DNA of 24,000 bases from Bacillota bacterium (GTDB taxonomy: Bacteria; Bacillota; UBA994; PWPR01): positions 7,751 through 31,750 of the forward strand of contig JANQLZ010000052.1 in NCBI GenBank assembly GCA_028280325.1, read 5' to 3'. Shown in pieces: positions 5,562-14,650 of the stretch. Both the position numbers and the translations under genes were made by a program. Numbering within the stretch: the stretch's first letter is position 1; the number at the start of each line of letters is the position of its first letter. Below the pieces are notes generated by a model. That model did no database searches and was not told where the DNA came from. It saw only the letters and a program-made list of their open reading frames with translations.

Positions 5562-6806
5562 TTATTTAAGCATATTAATAATGATTTTGGCACAGTCTTT
5601 GGCCCCATTTTCTGATCGGATTTTTTCACCGATCATTTTTGCTTTTGTTTGAATTGTTGGATTGTAAGCTTCTGAAATAGCAGCGGCAAGTCTCTTTGGG
5701 GTTAACTTTTTGGCATAAATTGGTTTTACACCAATGCCTAGATCATATGAGCGATGGGCCCAGGCGAACTGATCATTCGAAAAAGGAATAATGATACTTG
5801 GAACTCCTGCTCTAAAGCCGGCAGCAGAAGTACCGGCTCCCCCATGATGGCATACTGCTGAGACATGGTTAAATAGCCAGGTATGTGGAATACTACCCAG
5901 TGCGAAAATGTCTTTTGTAAGTTTAGCAGGCTGACCAAAGCCACTGACAATACCCCGTTTGCCACTGTCTGTGATTGCTTCAACTACCAGTTTACCTAGT
6001 TTATCGTGCTTTTTCATCATAGACATGCTTCCAAAACCTATATAGACTGGTTTTTCACCACTTGCCAAAAAAGCAGCCAATGCAGGATCAGGCCTGTAGT
6101 CATTACTTTCTTCAACAAACCAATAGCCAGTTTGATGGATATGATCGTTCCAGTCATCAGGACGTTTAAAGATATAATTACTACAGGAAACAAGAGCAGG
6201 TTGTTCAGATTTGTTGTGATATTCGAATGGGGCTCTGAAGTCCTGTGGCAAACTTCCAAACTGTTTTTTCCAAAAAGACTTAATAGAACTCTTTGAAGCC
6301 ATCCATAGCATACCTTGCAACATGGTGTAACTCAGTTTTATATTTAGAGCAGTAGGTTTCGATTTACCATACATTACAACAGATAAGTATTCCTTAGTTT
6401 TATGCATTGGAAAAGGTGAAGCAAGCACAGTTGGGATACCCAGCTGTTTGCCAGTAAAATAACCAATAGTACACCCGGGGTGGTAAATGATTAGTTCACT
6501 GTTTTTACATGCTTCGAAGTATTCTTTTGTTGTATAAATGCCATATGATTTCATTTTGTTGAAGGCAAGCAGCATTTTTATTGGATTATCTGCTGAGCCA
6601 GCTGCTTCAAGAAGCTTAGGGTCGATATTCAATGATGATATATCAACACTGATTGGATGGAATCCAATACCATAGCCAGTGATGAAGTTCTCAAAGTTTT
6701 TGTTGCCAACAATACGTACTTCTTTTCCCAGTTTAATTAATTGTTGAGCCAGAGCAATATACGGTTGGAAGTCGCCTCTTGAACCGGCGCAGAGAATTGT
6801 AATCAT
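5562..6806 (-). CDS. GT1-family UDP-glycosyltransferase (MGT/sterol-glucosyltransferase-like)
   Basis: 414 aa. N-terminal ILCAGSRGDFQPYIALAQQL. C-terminal nucleotide-sugar signature HHGGAGTSAAGFRAGVPSIIIPFSNDQ. SD ggggaga. Confidence 0.8.
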   Translation of the reverse strand: MITILCAGSRGDFQPYIALAQQLIKLGKEVRIVGNKNFENFITGYGIGFHPISVDISSLNIDPKLLEAAGSADNPIKMLLAFNKMKSYGIYTTKEYFEACKNSELIIYHPGCTIGYFTGKQLGIPTVLASPFPMHKTKEYLSVVMYGKSKPTALNIKLSYTMLQGMLWMASKSSIKSFWKKQFGSLPQDFRAPFEYHNKSEQPALVSCSNYIFKRPDDWNDHIHQTGYWFVEESNDYRPDPALAAFLASGEKPVYIGFGSMSMMKKHDKLGKLVVEAITDSGKRGIVSGFGQPAKLTKDIFALGSIPHTWLFNHVSAVCHHGGAGTSAAGFRAGVPSIIIPFSNDQFAWAHRSYDLGIGVKPIYAKKLTPKRLAAAISEAYNPTIQTKAKMIGEKIRSENGAKDCAKIIINMLK

Positions 6807-6853
6807 AATGTTCTCCCCATCTTTCAGATTTTAAAGTACACTTGTTTATTCCG

Positions 6854-6865
6854 ACAACCTGTTGT
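6854..6865. promoter_or_regulatory. Short inverted repeat, possible TetR operator
   Basis: ACAAC-ct-GTTGT. It lies in the spacer of a candidate tetR-side promoter (TTGTTT-17-TATGGT) and overlaps the -35 (TTGTCG) of a candidate GT-side promoter (18 nt to TAAAAT). Only 5-bp arms. Confidence 0.2.
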
Positions 6866-6951
6866 ATGGTATTAGTATAAGTGGCTCAAACGCATGATTC
6901 AATCAACAATACTGTAAGAAGTGTTGGATTAATGATAAACGGAGGAAGAAA

Positions 6952-7527
6952 ATGAACAAAAAACAACCTAAAACAACAGCTAAAACAAAACAAGCAATAA
7001 AAGATGCTTTTTGGGAGTTATACAAGCAGCAAAAGATTGAAAAGATTACAGTCAAAGATATTACAATGAGGGCAGGATATAACAGATCAACGTTTTATGC
7101 ATATTTTACAGATGTTTATGATGTACTCGAGCAAATTGAGGAAGATCTGATGCCTGGTGTAGAACATTTGCCACCAGTAGGTGTTACAGTAGAGCATCAA
7201 ACTGATTTAATAAACAATTTAATTCTTATTTATGAGAAGCATAGTGAGTATTATTCGGTACTGCTGAGTGAAAAAGGTGATCCAGGCTTTGCCATTAAAA
7301 TGAAAAATGTATTTAAATCTATGATGATGGAATCTGTCAAAGATCAAACAGCAACCCCCATGGAAGAATTGGATTACGCATTGGAGTTTCTCGTCAGCGC
7401 TACAATTTCAATAATAAAGCATTGGTTTCAACAGGATAAGAATATGCCTAAAGAAAGACTGATGCCCTTGATGTATAAGCTCATGAATAACAAGTTTGTC
7501 CAAGACTTGGGTATTGGGTGGAGATAG
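6952..7527 (+). CDS. TetR/AcrR-family transcriptional regulator
   Basis: 191 aa. N-terminal HTH TVKDITMRAGYNRSTFYAYF. SD ggagg. Divergent from the glycosyltransferase gene. Confidence 0.85.
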   Translation: MNKKQPKTTAKTKQAIKDAFWELYKQQKIEKITVKDITMRAGYNRSTFYAYFTDVYDVLEQIEEDLMPGVEHLPPVGVTVEHQTDLINNLILIYEKHSEYYSVLLSEKGDPGFAIKMKNVFKSMMMESVKDQTATPMEELDYALEFLVSATISIIKHWFQQDKNMPKERLMPLMYKLMNNKFVQDLGIGWR

Positions 7528-7629
7528 TCTTTCGTATATTTATCACAATAATAGACAACTTTTATGATAAAGTTAAGCTTGTATTGCTTTTTCAAGCAAT
7601 TATAGAAATAAAGAGCGGGAAGTGATCAT

Positions 7630-8178
7630 ATGTTGCCTAAGTTATATTACCAAATTAAAGGTAATCAAAGTATAAAAATAAGTTTAGAAGAATTATTTGA
7701 TTTCATAACAACAGAACCAACTAATACAGATCAATATTGGTTTAATACTGAAGAAACACTTATTATACTGGCAGCAAATGCTGCTGGTGGAATTTATGCA
7801 GCCATAGAAAAGGGAGATAACATAGAGAAGTTTCCAATAGTGTATATTAGTTCTGAAGGGCAGGCTGGCAAAATAGCTAAATCGTTCAGCGAGCTAGTTC
7901 AACTTATTATTCAATATCCCTACTGGCATGATATGTTAAGGTTCTCAGATGGGGGAGACTTGGAAAAGATGTTTGAAGCTATTCTATACTTAGAAAATGA
8001 GAGAATAGAGGTTCATTCTGATTATAAAGAAGTTCAGCATCAGATTATTGATAAATTGGGGATTGTCAATCGTAGCGATATATTGGAAAATATGCTAAAA
8101 GTAGTTTTTGAAAAGCCATATTTCAGAGTCTTCTCTGCTAATGATAACACTATGTCTGATCATTTAATCGATATTTAG
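7630..8178 (+). CDS. Hypothetical protein, SMI1/KNR4 (SUKH)-like immunity-type fold suspected
   Basis: 182 aa. The pattern ILAANAAGGIYAAIEKGDNIEKFPIVYISSEGQAGKIAKSFSELVQLI resembles the SUKH core (GG.xY...PVvy...g....iA.sF.efl). Motif reading only. Confidence 0.35.
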   Translation: MLPKLYYQIKGNQSIKISLEELFDFITTEPTNTDQYWFNTEETLIILAANAAGGIYAAIEKGDNIEKFPIVYISSEGQAGKIAKSFSELVQLIIQYPYWHDMLRFSDGGDLEKMFEAILYLENERIEVHSDYKEVQHQIIDKLGIVNRSDILENMLKVVFEKPYFRVFSANDNTMSDHLIDI

Positions 8179-8595
8179 GGCAAGAAAATCATTAAGTATT
8201 ATATAAGCAGTTGCCTATAGTAGAGGTGACTGTGTTTTTCAAGTAAACATTTGATATACATAAACTGCTATTTCGGTTCACAGGTGGAATTTAGTAGTCT
8301 TTATTTAAGTTAGTAGAAGTAATTGACTTCAACATTACAATGACTGCTCAACTTTTTCATGGTTTTCTGTTGTGTTTTTACTACCGGCTGTTGGCTATAT
8401 GTTTATGAAAGAATCAATATATATCTGTTTGATATTTTACTGCCTTTTTTATTTAATGACATTAAAATAATGCAAAATTTGAAAGCAATAAGAAAGGTGA
8501 TAATCCCACTAACTTAATTGACATTGGGTGGAACAGAGATGGAGTGTAAAGCTTAAAACATGAGAATAGAGAATAACTGAGAGGACGTGGTACAA

Positions 8596-9435
8596 ATGAA
8601 GGTTATTTTAAGCAGGAAAGGATTTGATTCTGGAACAGGGGGCTATGCCAGTCCCATAATGCCAGATGGAACATTGCTTTCGTTACCTATTCCAGACTCT
8701 TTTTCAGCTGTTAAATACACAGATATAAATTACAATGGAAGTAGTTATCATACTATAATGAGCTCTTTGAAAGGTGATTATTTAAAAAAAGGCGGAAAGA
8801 AAAGTGTGTTAACTCCAAATTGTACATGTCACTTTGATCCCGACTTGATGAGGAATGCCCTTCCCAGAGAAGAGGGCTGGCGAGGGCTTTTTGGGCAAAT
8901 TGATCGAGTGCAGTCTCATTTAGTAAATCAGGGAATTGAAGAAGGTGATTTGTTTCTTTTCTTTGGTTGGTTTAGAAAAACAATAGTAAGAAATGGTGAG
9001 CTGAAGTTTGATCCCAAAGATAGATTCGGTCGACATATAATTTATGGCTATCTGCAAATTGACCAAATTATTCGAGCAGATAGCGAGAAGAAGCTTGAAA
9101 AATGGATAATGCATCATCCCCATGCATTGGCAAGTAGATTAAGTAGATTTAATAATACGATATACATCTCTAAGGAAAGCCTGACGTTTATCGATAATAA
9201 TCCAGGGTTTGGTGTTTTTAAGTATGCGAGTCATCGCGTATTGACAAAAGCCGGTGAGAAAAACAGATCTTATTGGGGACTTCCAGAGGAGTTTAAGAGC
9301 CTTACTATCTCATGCCATAAGCAAAGTAATTGGCAAGACGGCTACTTCAAATCAAATGCCAGAGGCCAAGAGTTTGTAATCCAGCAAAATCAAATGGTCA
9401 GGCAATGGGTAAAAACACTTTTTAGGAAAGGATGA
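8596..9435 (+). CDS. Conserved hypothetical protein, possibly Nmad3-like (nucleotide-modification-associated domain)
   Basis: The ORF track starts at GTG 8587. ATG 8596 is 10 nt after SD gagagga (8579-8585). N-terminus is MKVILSRKGFDSGTGGYASPIMPDGTLLSLPIPD. The family name is an unverified recollection. Confidence 0.3.
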   Translation: MKVILSRKGFDSGTGGYASPIMPDGTLLSLPIPDSFSAVKYTDINYNGSSYHTIMSSLKGDYLKKGGKKSVLTPNCTCHFDPDLMRNALPREEGWRGLFGQIDRVQSHLVNQGIEEGDLFLFFGWFRKTIVRNGELKFDPKDRFGRHIIYGYLQIDQIIRADSEKKLEKWIMHHPHALASRLSRFNNTIYISKESLTFIDNNPGFGVFKYASHRVLTKAGEKNRSYWGLPEEFKSLTISCHKQSNWQDGYFKSNARGQEFVIQQNQMVRQWVKTLFRKG

Positions 9436-10394
9436 GAAAAATAGAAAAGAGTAAATTCTATGGATTATGTTTACAAGGGAAAATCCATAAGGCAATAGCC
9501 TATTTGGAAAGCTTGCAACCTCAAACAGAAGAGGTGAAAGATTTAAAAACAAAGTACACAAGACGATTTCTACTAAGGCAGGAAGAGGTAATACCCAAAA
9601 CAGATGATCCATGGATTGAAATAGTTTTGTCATCTTATCGCAACTATTATTTAGCTGTATTAACTGGATATGATGTGAAGCTGGCTGAAGAACGATTAAT
9701 TGCAGAACTGTCATCATGTTTAGCTGGTTCTATCTATTATGCAATAGATGCAATTGAGAAAGAACTTAAATATAAATTCCAAGAAAAAGGTTATAGCTTC
9801 TTAGGTGGTGATACGTCGCCTTTTTATGGCCCATATATATGGAAGCATACGGAACAGAAATCTTACCAGGTAAAAATACCTGATGGAGTTCAAAAAGTCA
9901 ATGTTTTTTACATCTCCGATTTCCTGATGATCAGCTGGGCCTATTTTGCAACATTTGGAGTAGTCTATGCGGGCGGCTGGGCTAAAGAAGAGGGACTATA
10001 TTATGTTGTCAGAGAGGATACTGCAATCGATGATACTTCTGTAGACTTTGTAACATGTTTTCTTAAACATGAAGCACAACATCTTTATGATTTTAAACAT
10101 AACCCTTCACTAAAAGGCTATCAACTGGAATATAGAGCTAAACTGGTAGAGCTTATTTATTACCCCAATAATAAAAACTTGCTTGAGAAGTTTCATTTTG
10201 AGGCAGCAAATGATAGTGCTTTACCTCATTCCTATGCATCGCACCTAATTATGGAGGAGTATATAAAGAAGCTCAATATTCTTAATCCTATGAACTGGTG
10301 GCAATATTTTGAGGAGTCGGTGTTACGTCAAATAGCAGTTGAGTTATTTAAGGAGAGTTTGAATACTTTAACCGTGTCCACATCTGACATGTAA
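9432..10394 (+). CDS. Hypothetical protein with HExxH (gluzincin-like) metallopeptidase motif
   Basis: 320 aa. Start overlaps the upstream stop in ATGA (9432-9435). H213-E-A-Q-H217 (nt 10068-10082) with Glu residues at 233 and 240 as possible third ligands. Helical N-terminal half. Confidence 0.35.
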   Translation: MRKIEKSKFYGLCLQGKIHKAIAYLESLQPQTEEVKDLKTKYTRRFLLRQEEVIPKTDDPWIEIVLSSYRNYYLAVLTGYDVKLAEERLIAELSSCLAGSIYYAIDAIEKELKYKFQEKGYSFLGGDTSPFYGPYIWKHTEQKSYQVKIPDGVQKVNVFYISDFLMISWAYFATFGVVYAGGWAKEEGLYYVVREDTAIDDTSVDFVTCFLKHEAQHLYDFKHNPSLKGYQLEYRAKLVELIYYPNNKNLLEKFHFEAANDSALPHSYASHLIMEEYIKKLNILNPMNWWQYFEESVLRQIAVELFKESLNTLTVSTSDM

Positions 10395-10458: not shown

Positions 10459-11103
10459 ATGAAGCAATATATTAATCAGGTATCAGAGATTTGGGGTTTA
10501 GGCAGCATCACTGTTAAAAACCTCAGCTCTAAAGGACAAAGAGCAGTACATATAATTCAAACAGACGGTGGTAATTATATCCTGAAATTCTTCCCCCCAA
10601 AAATTAAAGAGAATTTAATTATTAAATATACAGAATCACTGCGGTACCTTAATACTAAAAATCCAAAATTAGCTCCAGAGATAATTGAAACATTTAACGG
10701 AGATTTATATTCAGAAATCAATGGCCAATTTGCATATCTGATGGAAAAAATAGCAGGAAGACCGCTTCAGGAGAATATTGAAGATGAGTACAGGCTGGGT
10801 CAGGCTTCCGCCCGACTACATCAATTTTCTGATTACAATATTCCCAGTTGTTTGGATATTGACAGTATAATATCAGACATGAAAACCAAGTTTGCAGAGT
10901 ACCAGTTTAAAAGTGAATACAATAAAATTATTGATTCATTACCTGATTTTAATAAGTTTAAACAGACCTTTATCCATACTGATATCGGGCCGCATAATGC
11001 CATGATAGCAGATAGTAATCAAGTAATATTTGTTGATTGGGATGATGCCGGTCAGGGTTCTCCTTATATCGATATTGGGTATCCACTGATTACCCAGTTA
11101 TGA
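10459..11103 (+). CDS. APH/choline-kinase-fold phosphotransferase, N-terminal and catalytic part of a split gene
   Basis: 214 aa. Catalytic loop FIHTDIGPHNAMI (HxDxxxxN) and metal-binding FVDWDDAG. Ends at TGA 11101-11103, right after the activation-segment region. SD aaaggagag. Confidence 0.65.
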   Translation: MKQYINQVSEIWGLGSITVKNLSSKGQRAVHIIQTDGGNYILKFFPPKIKENLIIKYTESLRYLNTKNPKLAPEIIETFNGDLYSEINGQFAYLMEKIAGRPLQENIEDEYRLGQASARLHQFSDYNIPSCLDIDSIISDMKTKFAEYQFKSEYNKIIDSLPDFNKFKQTFIHTDIGPHNAMIADSNQVIFVDWDDAGQGSPYIDIGYPLITQL

Positions 11104-11336
11104 ATAAGAGAACAAAAGAAATAAAATTTAAGCAAAATGTAGCAAAGGCCTTTTATCAGGGGTACAACTCAATTTTACCAATTAAGAAAGAGGAGCTGGA
11201 ATTAATTTATTATGGCGCAGTGTTTATGCAGCTCATGTATATGCCCTGCTTTGGAAATGATGCTGTAGAAGATATGTGGGCGATTCTGAAGTTTAGTATT
11301 GATAATAAGGGAATTCTGTTATCAGCTATTCCTTAA
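11100..11336 (+). CDS. C-terminal part of the same APH-fold phosphotransferase (other frame)
   Basis: 78 aa. FYQGYNSILPIKKEELELIYYGAVFMQLMY looks like the helical C-lobe of APH-type kinases. ATG 11100 overlaps the upstream TGA (ATGA). 214+78 aa approximates a full-length enzyme. Confidence 0.5.
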   Translation: MNKRTKEIKFKQNVAKAFYQGYNSILPIKKEELELIYYGAVFMQLMYMPCFGNDAVEDMWAILKFSIDNKGILLSAIP

Positions 11337-11445: not shown

Positions 11446-11662
11446 CAATAAAAAATTAATTTGCTAAGCTTGATTACCATAATTATTCATTATCAATTGT
11501 TCATTGTTACTTCTTAATCTATGCCAGCTCATATGATGTTTGTAAATTTTTTGGCTAATTATTGATATCTCGGCATAATTCTGAATGGCAAAGTTTAAAG
11601 GAGGCGTTGAGGTGGTTAGCGTGCTTTCAATCCACTGTCACTTCCATAATTGCTCCAGCTGC
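11446..11662 (+). repeat. Left copy of an imperfect direct-repeat module (R1 11446-11529; X1 11530 to about 11625; degenerate R2 about 11639-11662)
   Basis: R1 versus R3 (14579-14648): about 61 of 72 aligned positions identical by eye, plus one 14-nt indel. X1/X2 share collinear anchors tatgatgtttgt (11532/14476), aattctg (11577/14515), ttgagg (11607/14544), ccataatt (11644/14609), ccagct (11655/14643). Confidence 0.6.
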
Positions 11663-11739: not shown

Positions 11740-12432
11740 GTGACAAGGAATATGATGATAATTGATATGATGGTAAAATTAAGAGACTCAGGAATACTTG
11801 ATTTGCTGAGTATAGCACTTAGCACTTTAATTCCACTTATAATCTTGTATACAACGTTAAAACATAGTAAAGAGCAATTTGGTCTACAACTTAAACAACA
11901 ACTCAAAGAACATTTAGAAAATATAGAAAAAATGGAGTATCAACATAAAGAAATAATGCAACAACAATCTGAGTGCAATCGAATTGCTGCAATGCCCTAT
12001 TTAATAATAGACAAATCAGATATAACAATAAGCAAGGAAAATAATACTATATATTTTAATATTCCTTTTAAAAATATAGGTAATGGGACAGCTATCAAAT
12101 TAACTGGAAAGTATCTTTCCAATTTGTCTGAAGCTTATTTATCCCCTATGTGTGAAACATTATCTTCTGTTTACGGTTGTGCCAGTCCTTTTGATTATGA
12201 GACTGATGTTTTAAAAGCCAATGACATATCATATATCATGCTTTATCAGCTATTAATTAAACCTAACACTCCAGTAAATTGTGATGAGGTTACATTTAAA
12301 ATATTATTTAAAGACATGTATTATAATCAATATGAGCAGCAATTTATGTTCTTATTTAACAACAATACTTTAGATGGTAGCATTTATATTGATCGTGTCT
12401 CTGTAAAACCTCCTGAGGTGTGTGAAAAATGA
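11740..12432 (+). CDS. Hypothetical membrane-anchored protein (N-terminal TM helix, coiled-coil linker, beta-sandwich-like C-terminal domain)
   Basis: The ORF opens at GTG 11740; ATG 11752/11755 after aaggaa is a more likely start. Hydrophobic ILDLLSIALSTLIPLIILYTTL, then a Q/E/K-rich linker, then a beta-rich region with FKNIGNGTAIKL (NxGxGxA motif, as in CARDB-like beta-sandwiches). Confidence 0.5.
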   Translation: MTRNMMIIDMMVKLRDSGILDLLSIALSTLIPLIILYTTLKHSKEQFGLQLKQQLKEHLENIEKMEYQHKEIMQQQSECNRIAAMPYLIIDKSDITISKENNTIYFNIPFKNIGNGTAIKLTGKYLSNLSEAYLSPMCETLSSVYGCASPFDYETDVLKANDISYIMLYQLLIKPNTPVNCDEVTFKILFKDMYYNQYEQQFMFLFNNNTLDGSIYIDRVSVKPPEVCEK

Positions 12433-12705
12433 CTATGATACCTTTTTGTTTGCTTAAGGCATGTAGAGAACGGATGATTACATAATTATACCTTGTGGTG
12501 CCTTACGCCAAAATATTTAAAAACAGATATGTCTCTAAGTATTATTTTTGTGAATATTTTAACTATTGTTTTATTTTTTAGTGTTTTATTTTTGTATTCA
12601 GAAATCGTTACTACTCCTAAATCTAATACAATCCTGAAAGCCACGGCTTAATGGTGATAACACTGATAAATACTGTATTTATGAAATTGATTAGGGGGAA
12701 GATAC

Positions 12706-14271
12706 ATGCAAATAAAGTTAAGGAGCTATCAGATTGAGGCTGTTGAGAAGATTAATGCTTTCTTTTGGTCAGATGTTAATAAGGCCAAGATACATTTAGC
12801 TTCTGGTTTGGGAAAATCAAGTATTATTATATCTTCTATAGAAAGAATACTTGAAAAGAAAAAAAATGCTTTAATACTAATTCTATTCTCTAGGCGAGTT
12901 ATTTGTTATCAGTTTGAAGATGCAGTTAGAAAGGTATTATTGAATGTGCGGATTTCTAAAAACCTTAATGACTCAGAGTTTAGTAATGTTTGCATAACAA
13001 CATATCAAGCGTTCTATAGATTTAGACCAGAAAAGTTAGAAATTTTTGATTTGATTATTTGTGATGAAGCACATTTTTTAAAAAGTGAAAAACATAAAAT
13101 ACTCTTTGATAGTAGTCTAACGAAGTACTTAGGTATAATGAGTACCGAATCATATTCAGAAGGGTGGTTTAGAGATGTAAGGTGTATTTATGTGTACACA
13201 TTGAGAGAGGCATTTAATGATGGATATTTTGAGCACCCCAATGAAAGACAACTAGTTGAGAATTTTTTTGTACCACTATTATCAACACAGAGGTTTAAGA
13301 ATGTACAAACTGGAGTATTATTAAGTGATTATATAAAGGTTGATATGTCAGCAAACAAAGGAGAAGATATTTTTGTTTTTGAAGTAAAAGTTTATAGAGG
13401 ACTTTATAATCCACATAGTACAATAAATGCTGCATTAAACCAAATTATTAGCTATAAAGAAGCTTTAGATAGCCAACCACGATATAAAAAGATCTCATTT
13501 GTTATTATTCTTTTGTGTAAAGTAGAGGAATCTTTTATCCATGAGGTATTTGACAAGTATAAAATTACTATATGGGACATTAGTAATATAATATATCTCT
13601 GCAACAACAACAATGACCTTATAAACTCACTAAGCAAGTATTTACCGTATTCTATAATTGACATTAAAGGACAGGTACCAATAAACCTGAGTTATAATGT
13701 TGGTAAAAGGACTTCATATAAGACCAAAACTCCATTTGCTAAATTAGAATACTTTCAAAATAAGCTTGATGAATGCCAAAAAGGAAGAAATAGTGCTAGG
13801 ACTTATGAAATTATTTGTACAGAAATAGTAAATTATCTGTTCCACACAGAGTTTACACAAATATCTGAGCAACATAGAACAGGTGATGATATGTTCTGTA
13901 TGGATTTATTATGTGGATTGAAGGGTACAACAGAGTTCTGGAAATTCTTGATGCGTTTTTATAATACAAAGTTTATAGTCTTTGAGTACAAAAACTATTC
14001 TGATTATATTTCTCAAAATTTGATTTATACAACAGAAAAGTATTTATTTTCTATGTCTTTGAGAAATGTAGCATTCATAATATCAAGGCTTGGATTCAGT
14101 CCCAATGCGAAAAAAGCAGCTTTGGGATGTTTAAAGGAGCATGGTAAACTAATAATCAGTTTAAATGACGAAGACCTACTTAAAATGATAGCAATAAAGG
14201 TGAATGGTGAGGAGCCATCTGATTATCTCTTATATAAAGTGGAGAATTTATTAATGTCAGTAGATAAATAA
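12706..14271 (+). CDS. SF2 (ResIII-type) helicase N-lobe fused to two PD-(D/E)xK restriction-endonuclease-like modules
   Basis: 521 aa. LRSYQ (5-9), SGLGKS (33-38), ITTYQ (97-101), DEAH (120-123), MSTE (145-148); no helicase motifs IV-VI. D213...E226-V-K228 plus ITIWDISNIIYL. D400...E427-Y-K429. SD aggggga. Confidence 0.6.
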   Translation: MQIKLRSYQIEAVEKINAFFWSDVNKAKIHLASGLGKSSIIISSIERILEKKKNALILILFSRRVICYQFEDAVRKVLLNVRISKNLNDSEFSNVCITTYQAFYRFRPEKLEIFDLIICDEAHFLKSEKHKILFDSSLTKYLGIMSTESYSEGWFRDVRCIYVYTLREAFNDGYFEHPNERQLVENFFVPLLSTQRFKNVQTGVLLSDYIKVDMSANKGEDIFVFEVKVYRGLYNPHSTINAALNQIISYKEALDSQPRYKKISFVIILLCKVEESFIHEVFDKYKITIWDISNIIYLCNNNNDLINSLSKYLPYSIIDIKGQVPINLSYNVGKRTSYKTKTPFAKLEYFQNKLDECQKGRNSARTYEIICTEIVNYLFHTEFTQISEQHRTGDDMFCMDLLCGLKGTTEFWKFLMRFYNTKFIVFEYKNYSDYISQNLIYTTEKYLFSMSLRNVAFIISRLGFSPNAKKAALGCLKEHGKLIISLNDEDLLKMIAIKVNGEEPSDYLLYKVENLLMSVDK

Positions 14272-14473: not shown

Positions 14474-14650
14474 TCTATGATGTTTGTGACTATAGTTACG
14501 CTTAATATAGCTTCAATTCTGTGAGCCATGGTATAAAGATGTTTTGAGGGTGTCTAGCAATTTATTTGCAGCTTATATCAATAAAAAATTAGTTGCCAAA
14601 CTAAATTACCATAATTGTTTATTATTACTTCTTAATTCTATACCAGCTTG
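14474..14650 (+). repeat. Right copy of the direct-repeat module (X2 14474 to about 14560; R3 14579-14648)
   Basis: See the left copy. Anchors occur in the same order and at similar spacing. Together the two copies bracket 11663-14473. Confidence 0.6.

Follow-up and report, generated by a model that had tools for sequence, protein, structure and literature searches.

A helicase-derived lobe joined to two predicted PD-(D/E)xK nuclease domains in tandem: an undescribed family of candidate stand-alone immune nucleases

Defence proteins in which a nuclease is combined with a sensor are known from several systems. In Shedu (SduA, DUF4263), a conserved C-terminal PD-(D/E)xK core is joined to many alternative N-terminal domains, which are thought to sense infection and to gate the nuclease (10.1101/2023.08.10.552793). 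Upx, a monomeric 3'-5' single-stranded DNA (ssDNA) exonuclease of 1,272 amino acids (aa) with an atypical N-terminal nuclease and an NTD-MD-CTD layout, has two PD-(D/E)xK-type nuclease domains, both needed for defence and regulated by a non-catalytic domain (PMC13099982). END nucleases, which were tested experimentally against hypermodified phages, consist of an inactive EndoIII fused to a type IIS-like nuclease (PMC12191111). Here, we describe a gene in a 24,000-nucleotide (nt) stretch of contig JANQLZ010000052.1 from a Bacillota bacterium, hereafter the window, the 521-aa product of which joins the first lobe of a helicase (the head) to two predicted nuclease domains in tandem (the core). 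On balance we lean towards regarding it as a stand-alone restriction- or innate-immunity-type nuclease without a methyltransferase partner, with the helicase-derived lobe as a non-motor sensor or gate. As nuclease-with-sensor defence proteins are known, this is not a categorically new system; what is new is a family not described before, which combines an unusual head with a widespread, unmodelled core of tandem nucleases.

The protein resembles Shedu in its single-polypeptide logic of a nuclease core with diverse N-terminal heads and in the existence of core-only forms in both families, but its core is a tandem of two Mrr-type domains, where Shedu has one DUF4263 domain. For family-wide comparisons, Pfam and PADLOC scans were performed on 60 members and conservation was counted over 157 representatives. 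The DUF4263 model (PF14082) had no match in the window protein at E<=10, nor in the 60 members at E<=0.01, and no Shedu or EndoMS structure was found among the top 50 Protein Data Bank (PDB) fold matches listed for the C-terminal module. With Upx it shares the presence of two PD-(D/E)xK nucleases within one polypeptide; the two proteins are, however, unrelated in sequence (no PADLOC match to Gao_Upx), size and fold, and Upx is without a helicase-derived domain. Like the Mrr/MspJI-like type IV enzymes, it is encoded by a stand-alone gene without a methyltransferase, with both modules assigned to the Mrr-cat/NERD branch, but it differs from them by the half-helicase head and the two tandem nuclease domains, and no Mrr_N, SRA-type or similar modification-reader domain of Pfam was found in the window protein or the 60 members. 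HsdR, Res and ZorD likewise combine a superfamily 2 (SF2) helicase module with a PD-(D/E)xK nuclease, and share homology with the head in ResIII lobe 1; in contrast to the single lobe with dispensable ATPase motifs found here, they possess both RecA lobes and ATP-driven DNA translocation. Compared to HsdR and Res, the domain order is moreover reversed and M or S partners are missing: HsdR profiles align to lobe 1 and to nothing else in the protein, and the neighbours in 70 loci do not include a conserved M or S gene. END nucleases might be seen as the closest conceptual precedent, as a dead DNA enzyme is reused there as a DNA-sensing head, comparable to the degenerate half-helicase and the dead C5 DNA methyltransferase heads described below; their domains are unrelated to the present ones, and the present family is known from sequence and models alone.

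No full-length match to any named system, including Hachiman, Nhi, Hna, PbeA and ZorD, was obtained with PADLOC v2 for the 60 members. Partial matches of lobe 1 were to REase_I, PbeA and DinG, and in 3/60 and 1/60 members to ZorD and Nhi, respectively. The only consistent match was the PADLOC candidate PDC-M36A (52/60 members, best E=6.5e-18), which is restricted to the C-terminal domain and in the window protein places aa 358-497 on profile positions 295-432 of 457; PDC-M36A is uncharacterised, belongs to a multi-gene candidate and is without the half-helicase. The whole tandem core is shared with PHROG 31260, for which no function is given and which is equally without the half-helicase (E=7.5e-57 over aa 208-520); in NCBIfam, the core is not represented by a model. 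Full-text literature searches, including PDC-M36, accessions, phrog_31260, tandem or dual nucleases and single-RecA defence proteins, found no paper describing the family. The reading of this gene from its sequence alone (the sequence-only reading) had named it a candidate for an undescribed system, of unrecognised architecture. This holds for the literature and for the whole protein, for which profile and structure searches gave no characterised family and no two-lobe helicase core; a part of it had, however, already been modelled, without a function, in PHROG 31260 and PDC-M36A.

The head was recognised by Pfam as ResIII at aa 3-134 (E=1.4e-18), with weaker DEAD, SNF2 and Flavi_DEAD matches over the same stretch. 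In the window copy, the Q motif, Walker A, motif Ia/Ic and Walker B of an SF2 lobe 1 are all present, including Q9, GLGKS at 34-38, TTYQ at 98-101 and DEAH at 120-123. The sequence-only reading had based its assignment of a lone ResIII-type lobe on L5-R-S-Y-Q9, S33-G-L-G-K-S38, I97-T-T-Y-Q101, C119-D-E-A-H123, M145-S-T-E148 and Y164, all of which are located as quoted, and the profile matches put these motifs far beyond chance. Searches of PADLOC, NCBIfam and PDB sequences gave alignments to type I HsdR, RadD and XPB, in each case confined to lobe 1, and the AlphaFold2 model shows a RecA-like alpha/beta lobe at residues 1-175. Motifs IV-VI, including the arginine finger, were also correctly reported as missing: Pfam Helicase_C matches 0/60 members, and in the AlphaFold2 model a second RecA lobe is absent and residue 175 is followed by nuclease folds.

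The ATPase motifs of the head proved to be optional. Walker A (GK[ST]) is intact in 91/157 representatives, Walker B (D[DE]) in 67/157 and both in 55/157 (35%), the window copy among them; by this count, purifying selection does not maintain the motifs family-wide. Intact motifs are concentrated near the window protein, with 38/53 at >=45% identity to it as opposed to 9/75 at <40%, and several other lobe-1 residues (T99, Y100, Q9, G34, G36, Y164) are better kept than K37 or D120. In SF2 enzymes, ATP hydrolysis requires the motif VI arginine finger of lobe 2. Because intact ATPase motifs concentrate in the window's clade, the sequences indicate that ATP hydrolysis cannot be the conserved activity of the family, whereas nucleotide binding may persist in that clade. 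For the lone lobe, the sequence-only reading had left three options. The loss of Walker A/B in about two thirds of members now favours a sensor over a motor, and the absence of any conserved neighbour from 70 loci speaks against a lobe in need of a partner. The latter option would amount to a split helicase: a RecA2/Helicase_C protein encoded by another gene, or a second protomer, would complement the head, and the ATPase thus restored would move the nuclease along DNA. The window copy and its clade have kept the Q motif, Walker A and DEAH, which would be in line with such an arrangement, as would one locus (L007) in which type I hsdMSR is located immediately upstream, with the family gene 47 bp downstream of hsdR. 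We nevertheless consider it very improbable, given that no Helicase_C-bearing or other gene is conserved alongside the family gene in the 70 loci, that no scanned member has a Helicase_C match of its own, and that Walker A and B are intact together in only 35% of the family while the nucleases stay intact.

For the remainder of the protein, the full-length AlphaFold2 model (60 homologues; mean predicted local distance difference test (pLDDT) 87, predicted TM-score (pTM) 0.43) comprises three well-folded modules at residues 1-175, 180-310 and 344-521, with residues 330-342 disordered. Residues 180-310 and 344-521 each show the alpha-beta-beta-beta-alpha-beta order of PD-(D/E)xK nucleases and a corresponding catalytic set, D213/E226/K228 in the middle domain and D400/E427/K429 in the C-terminal domain, the latter with E368 as the helix-1 Glu; the models thus present them as two PD-(D/E)xK cores. 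Both had been proposed in the sequence-only reading, as an Mrr-cat-like domain and a second nuclease-like core, on the basis of D213, E226-V-K228, D400 and E427-Y-K429-N-Y431, and all of these residues are in place. The middle domain is detected as PDDEXK_9 in the window protein (aa 216-275, E=2.7e-3) and among the 60 homologues as PDDEXK_9 (18), NERD (18), Mrr_cat (14) or Hjc (6). For the C-terminal domain, neither Pfam nor NCBIfam holds a model, and a profile of it yielded just a spurious G-alpha match among PDB sequences; in one relative, it matches Pfam Mrr_cat (E=6e-6). Modelled alone, this domain reached a pLDDT of 93.8 and a pTM of 0.90, and Foldseek found weak PD-(D/E)xK matches in the PDB, the best being Nt.BspD6I (E=0.023, query-normalised TM-score (TMq) 0.56), followed by the Can2 nuclease domain and NucC, and, among predicted viral structures, proteins named 'Restriction endonuclease' (E=8e-5 to 1.5e-3). 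With the whole model as query, Foldseek retrieved only SF2 helicases from the PDB (XPB, RadD, RIG-I/LGP2/MDA5) at a TMq of 0.25-0.3, which on this model is a match of lobe 1 alone, and no solved PDB protein with the half-helicase and twin-nuclease architecture. In a profile-profile comparison of the two nuclease modules, only the catalytic strand was aligned, with E226-x-K228 on E427-x-K429. A recent duplication of the nuclease domains is unsupported, the alignment being restricted to this ExK strand.

A homology search with the window protein, for which an identical sequence record exists (P0001), retrieved 153 clusters with a near-constant length of ~520 aa, down to 34% identity, annotated at source just as 'DEAD/DEAH box helicase family protein' or as hypothetical. 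The C-terminal triad D400/E427/K429 is intact in 157/157 representatives and the middle D/E/K triad in 135/157 (86%), which also answers the question of D..ExK conservation raised in the sequence-only reading. Mean pairwise identity (n=157) falls from 60% in the C-terminal domain to 32% in the middle domain, 26% in the head and 18% in the linker; as judged from these alignments, constraint resides in the nucleases and not in the helicase lobe. It could be imagined that the protein is a decayed remnant of a type I or III restriction subunit without a function of its own, as the best profile matches of the head are to HsdR and ResIII. This idea is effectively refuted by the conservation data, and we attach next to no credence to it: the length of ~520 aa is constant across the 157 representative clusters, the catalytic residues are invariant, the C-terminal domain retains its 60% identity across distant taxa, the gene has a strong ribosome-binding site of its own, and the domain order is unlike that of any R subunit.

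In a scan of species-representative genomes, the family was found mainly in gut and rumen Clostridia, with hosts including Blautia, Merdimonas, Oscillospiraceae, Acutalibacteraceae, Ruthenibacterium and Agathobaculum, and in a few bins assigned elsewhere. Its genes are accessory, patchily distributed and inserted at varying sites. Full-length members also occur on contigs binned to distant phyla, namely in metagenome-assembled genomes of the archaeon Methanobrevibacter (L031), of Ignavibacteriae (L037), of Muribaculaceae (L052) and of Melainabacteria (L078); these contigs are short, and the members reflect either horizontal transfer or binning contamination.

The C-terminal domain alone was searched against 1.84 billion representative proteins, which yielded 1,395 clusters (50% identity) with a cutoff of E<=1e-3 and 860 with one of E<=1e-10, ranging from Clostridia to Agrobacterium plasmids. 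The domain is located at the C-terminus in the best 150 matches listed and is accompanied by the middle domain in 251/253 sampled proteins of >300 aa. By this co-occurrence, the two nuclease domains form an obligate tandem core and are the evolutionary unit, and it is this conserved unit, not the helicase half, that defines the family. The core occurs alone (~340 aa class, both catalytic sets kept), with a TIR head (~472 aa class), with a C5 DNA methyltransferase head (~640 aa class) and with the half-helicase head (~520 aa class); core-only, TIR-core and methyltransferase-core relatives match PHROG 31260 as well. The C5 methyltransferase heads (P0239, P0233, P0249, P0197, P0246; about 630-650 aa) are without the motif IV catalytic Pro-Cys (PCQ cysteine), the FxGxG S-adenosylmethionine motif and ENV, which makes them dead enzymes, presumably reused as DNA or cytosine readers. 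Despite the existing PHROG model, tblastn of the core gave no match in a phage genome collection. Core-only proteins are labelled 'restriction endonuclease' by PGAP, for example on pAtC58 of Agrobacterium fabrum, where one is encoded beside a Gabija-like pair, and core-only and TIR-core relatives are likewise found in defence-type contexts. We tentatively propose, as a possibility of which we are less persuaded than of a stand-alone immune nuclease in the window, that single-protein immune nucleases with the tandem Mrr-type core make up a large superfamily, so far unrecognised and parallel to Shedu, with specificity conferred by swappable 'dead-enzyme' heads (the motor-less half-helicase, the cysteine-less C5 methyltransferase or TIR) and with the half-helicase of the window's clade serving as a nucleotide- or DNA-structure-gated switch without translocation.

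The mechanism we propose for the window protein is as follows. Its working part would be the pair of Mrr-type PD-(D/E)xK domains, each with a full catalytic set, and we infer that both active sites act jointly on DNA, most simply on one strand each, as is known for restriction enzymes that have two different catalytic domains. The C-terminal active site is probably the indispensable one. Because lobe 2 and the arginine finger are missing and the ATPase motifs are dispensable across the family, the head would not be a motor, but most likely a specificity or gating module. It would bind DNA, recognising structure or backbone, through the DNA-contacting surface of lobe 1 and without translocation. 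In the clade of the window protein, which has kept all of Q motif, Walker A and DEAH, it possibly binds nucleotide too; for control of a defence nuclease by nucleotide sensing, GajA provides a precedent. Binding by the head would then control access to, or the activity of, the nuclease core. Because the same core is used with no head, with a TIR or with a dead C5 DNA methyltransferase, the head may be understood as an exchangeable sensor on a common effector.

The argument for a role in defence against phages or plasmids is entirely one of genomic context, which was assessed in 11 annotated loci and by clustering all neighbour open reading frames (ORFs) within 5 kb in 70 loci. The commonest recognisable neighbours are defence genes, and the placement of the gene among defence systems, on which the sequence-only reading had made its proposal of a defence nuclease depend, is seen in the form of adjoining Mrr, Abi_2, Gabija, type I restriction-modification, CBASS-like and AAA_21-RloB genes, TIR, recombinases and phage-like elements. 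Individual loci contain an AAA_23 three-gene system, TIR_2 and an integrase (L001); Mrr, Abi_2, insertion sequence elements and a type I/IIG methylase (L002-L005); a phage-like element with primase, resolvase, terminase and portal (L006); Gabija (L009); a serine-recombinase/D5-primase element at the same chromosomal site as L009 (L010-L012); AAA_21-RloB (L013); and SMODS-SLATT, HipA and an integrase (L018); L017 and L020 are less informative. An identical family protein (P0033) is encoded in L009 and L010-L012 with the same downstream flank (GntR regulator etc.) and different upstream cargo, Gabija and Fic in the former and the recombinase/primase element in the latter, which indicates a variable hotspot.

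Clustering of the neighbour ORFs, first of 10 and then of all 70 loci, revealed no universal partner gene, with no neighbour cluster present in more than 11/70 loci. Recurrent neighbours are a generic ABC ATPase (11), serine recombinase (10), Fic (10), tyrosine integrase (8) and OLD/GajA-like, RhuM and KilA-N proteins (4 each), and recombinases were located within 5 kb in 18/70 loci. As no neighbour recurs throughout, the comparison of loci presents the family gene as autonomous, a single-gene system, and excludes a split-off lobe 2 in an adjacent gene. In the loci with Fic (L060, L061, L063, L064, L067, L070, L071, L073, L074, L077; family gene at about 5990-7590), a Fic/DOC gene (348 aa) ends 12-18 bp upstream on the same strand; these Fic proteins are 90-100% identical, whereas the family proteins downstream of them share 41-98% (median 55%) and have a degenerate Walker A. 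The linkage could mean either that one subclade has a two-gene module or that cargo diversifies in a slot of an otherwise conserved mobile-element backbone.

Two further explanations were considered. In the first, the protein is an abortive-infection effector, in which the head auto-inhibits the core until infection is signalled, be it by a phage protein, by free DNA ends or ssDNA, or by nucleotide depletion; the core is then released, and both host and phage DNA are degraded. This is compatible with the lack of a methyltransferase or other self-marking partner in the 70 loci, with the TIR heads of sister proteins, a domain typical of suicide-type immunity, and with the position of the family gene 12-18 bp behind a gene of the toxin-like Fic family in 10 loci, and it has literature precedents in the activation of Upx by phage gp16 (PMC13099982) and the activation-by-assembly of Shedu (10.1101/2023.08.10.552793). 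The present data do not, however, separate an abortive outcome from direct restriction, no trigger is known, and Mrr-type nucleases are classically direct restriction enzymes, for which reasons we regard an abortive effector as rather unlikely, though it deserves more weight than any of the other rivals. The second explanation places the protein outside immunity, as a nuclease of DNA repair, recombination or mobile-element maintenance, for example a structure-specific resolvase, that rides on mobile elements. The resemblance of the head to the repair helicases XPB and RadD, middle domains matching Hjc and AHJR resolvase models in some members, the many loci that are mobile elements, and a DNA-alkylation-repair-like gene among the neighbours in the window are all in accord with this. 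Against it stand the patchy, accessory distribution with variable insertion sites, the fast-evolving and exchangeable head, the prevalence of defence genes among recognisable neighbours, and the loss of ATPase motifs within one orthologous family, which is rarely tolerated by repair enzymes; we therefore judge a repair or maintenance role to be improbable.

A stand-alone immune nuclease with a non-motor head is thus the reading we retain, but several observations weigh against it. The intact Walker A/B motifs in the window's clade could signal a real ATP-dependent activity there. Gating by the head is purely inferential, because the relative arrangement of the domains is not confidently predicted (pTM 0.43), and the model gives no account of how the cell's own DNA escapes cleavage. 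Two or three loci, namely L017, L020 and also the window, are without clear defence neighbours, and the association with defence islands was judged from the 11 annotated and 70 clustered loci without a formal enrichment statistic. Finally, no experimental evidence for the family exists, in keeping with the outcome of the literature search.

The features of the gene and its surroundings in the window are given in Table 1. GC content is 0.29 over ~12-15 kb compared to 0.35-0.41 on the flanks, and the AT-rich context noted in the sequence-only reading is therefore real; the flanking repeat noted with it is also present, but imperfect, with 76% identity over 55 nt, or extending over ~85-90 nt if one 13-nt gap is allowed. 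The 3.1-kb segment of 29% GC between the repeats holds two accessory genes, the family gene and a 230-aa ORF, and this bracketing suggests an inserted cassette. No integrase or tRNA was found near the cassette, and no tRNA anywhere in the window. Two terminator-like matches were found, both inside the 230-aa ORF and at chance level, and none 3' of the family gene.

Table 1. Coordinates of the family gene, its domains and the surrounding features in the window.
Feature	Position	Strand	Basis
Coding sequence, 521 aa + stop, ATG start: half-helicase + tandem nuclease protein	12706..14271	+	ORF list
Shine-Dalgarno AGGGGGA, 6 nt 5' of ATG	12693..12699	+	read from sequence
aa 1-175, ResIII/SF2 RecA lobe 1 only	12706..13230	+	Pfam ResIII; PADLOC REase_I profile positions 342-526; XPB/RadD/RIG-I lobe-1 fold matches
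aa 180-310, Mrr-cat/NERD-like PD-(D/E)xK domain (predicted), D213/E226/K228	13243..13635	+	AlphaFold2 core order; Pfam matches across members; triad conservation
aa 311-343, variable linker, disordered 330-342	13636..13734	+	pLDDT <50 at 330-342; mean pairwise identity 18%
aa 344-521, highly conserved second restriction-endonuclease-fold domain (predicted), E368/D400/E427-x-K429/Q437	13735..14268	+	AlphaFold2; Foldseek; conservation; without Pfam or NCBIfam model
Imperfect direct repeat, left copy	11451..11505	.	repeat search, 76% identity; alignment
Imperfect direct repeat, right copy	14583..14637	.	repeat search; alignment
Co-cassette ORF, 230 aa from GTG or 225 aa from ATG	11740..12432	+	small Clostridia family
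Weak SUKH/SMI1-KNR4 matches	7630..8178	+	E about 4e-3
Nmad3 protein	8587..9435	+	E=3e-67
320-aa ORF	9432..10394	+	
APH-type phosphotransferase domain, 214 aa	10459..11103	+	
78-aa ORF resembling the missing C-terminus of the phosphotransferase	11100..11336	+	

The 230-aa ORF has a predicted N-terminal hydrophobic helix and no Pfam or PADLOC match, and its homologues form 15 clusters. It was considered as a dedicated partner of the family gene and rejected, as a homologue in Hathewaya proteolytica, located directly downstream of a 2,113-aa NACHT protein, has no family gene nearby. Because of this NACHT neighbour, the ORF may be another defence-associated gene. Upstream of the cassette, the stop of the gene for an Nmad3 (nucleotide-modification-associated domain 3) protein overlaps the start of the 320-aa ORF, which is without a family match, and the two may constitute a DNA or nucleotide-modification gene pair. 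The APH-type kinase gene, which borders the cassette on its left, may have suffered a frameshift or a split, with the 78-aa ORF overlapping its end. The weak SUKH/SMI1-KNR4 matches further upstream are to a family that is typical among the immunity proteins of polymorphic toxin systems.

An SF2 RecA lobe 1 that stands alone and has optional ATPase motifs is unusual, and it could reveal the capabilities of a first helicase lobe by itself. If the proposed reading is right, a widespread effector module would be added to the catalogue of bacterial innate immunity, and the heads would provide a clean natural case of DNA enzymes, a helicase lobe and a C5 methyltransferase, that were stripped of catalysis and reused as sensors. 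The family could also be a source of compact nucleases. It is common in Clostridia of the human and animal gut and may constitute a barrier to phage therapy or to genetic manipulation in these organisms.

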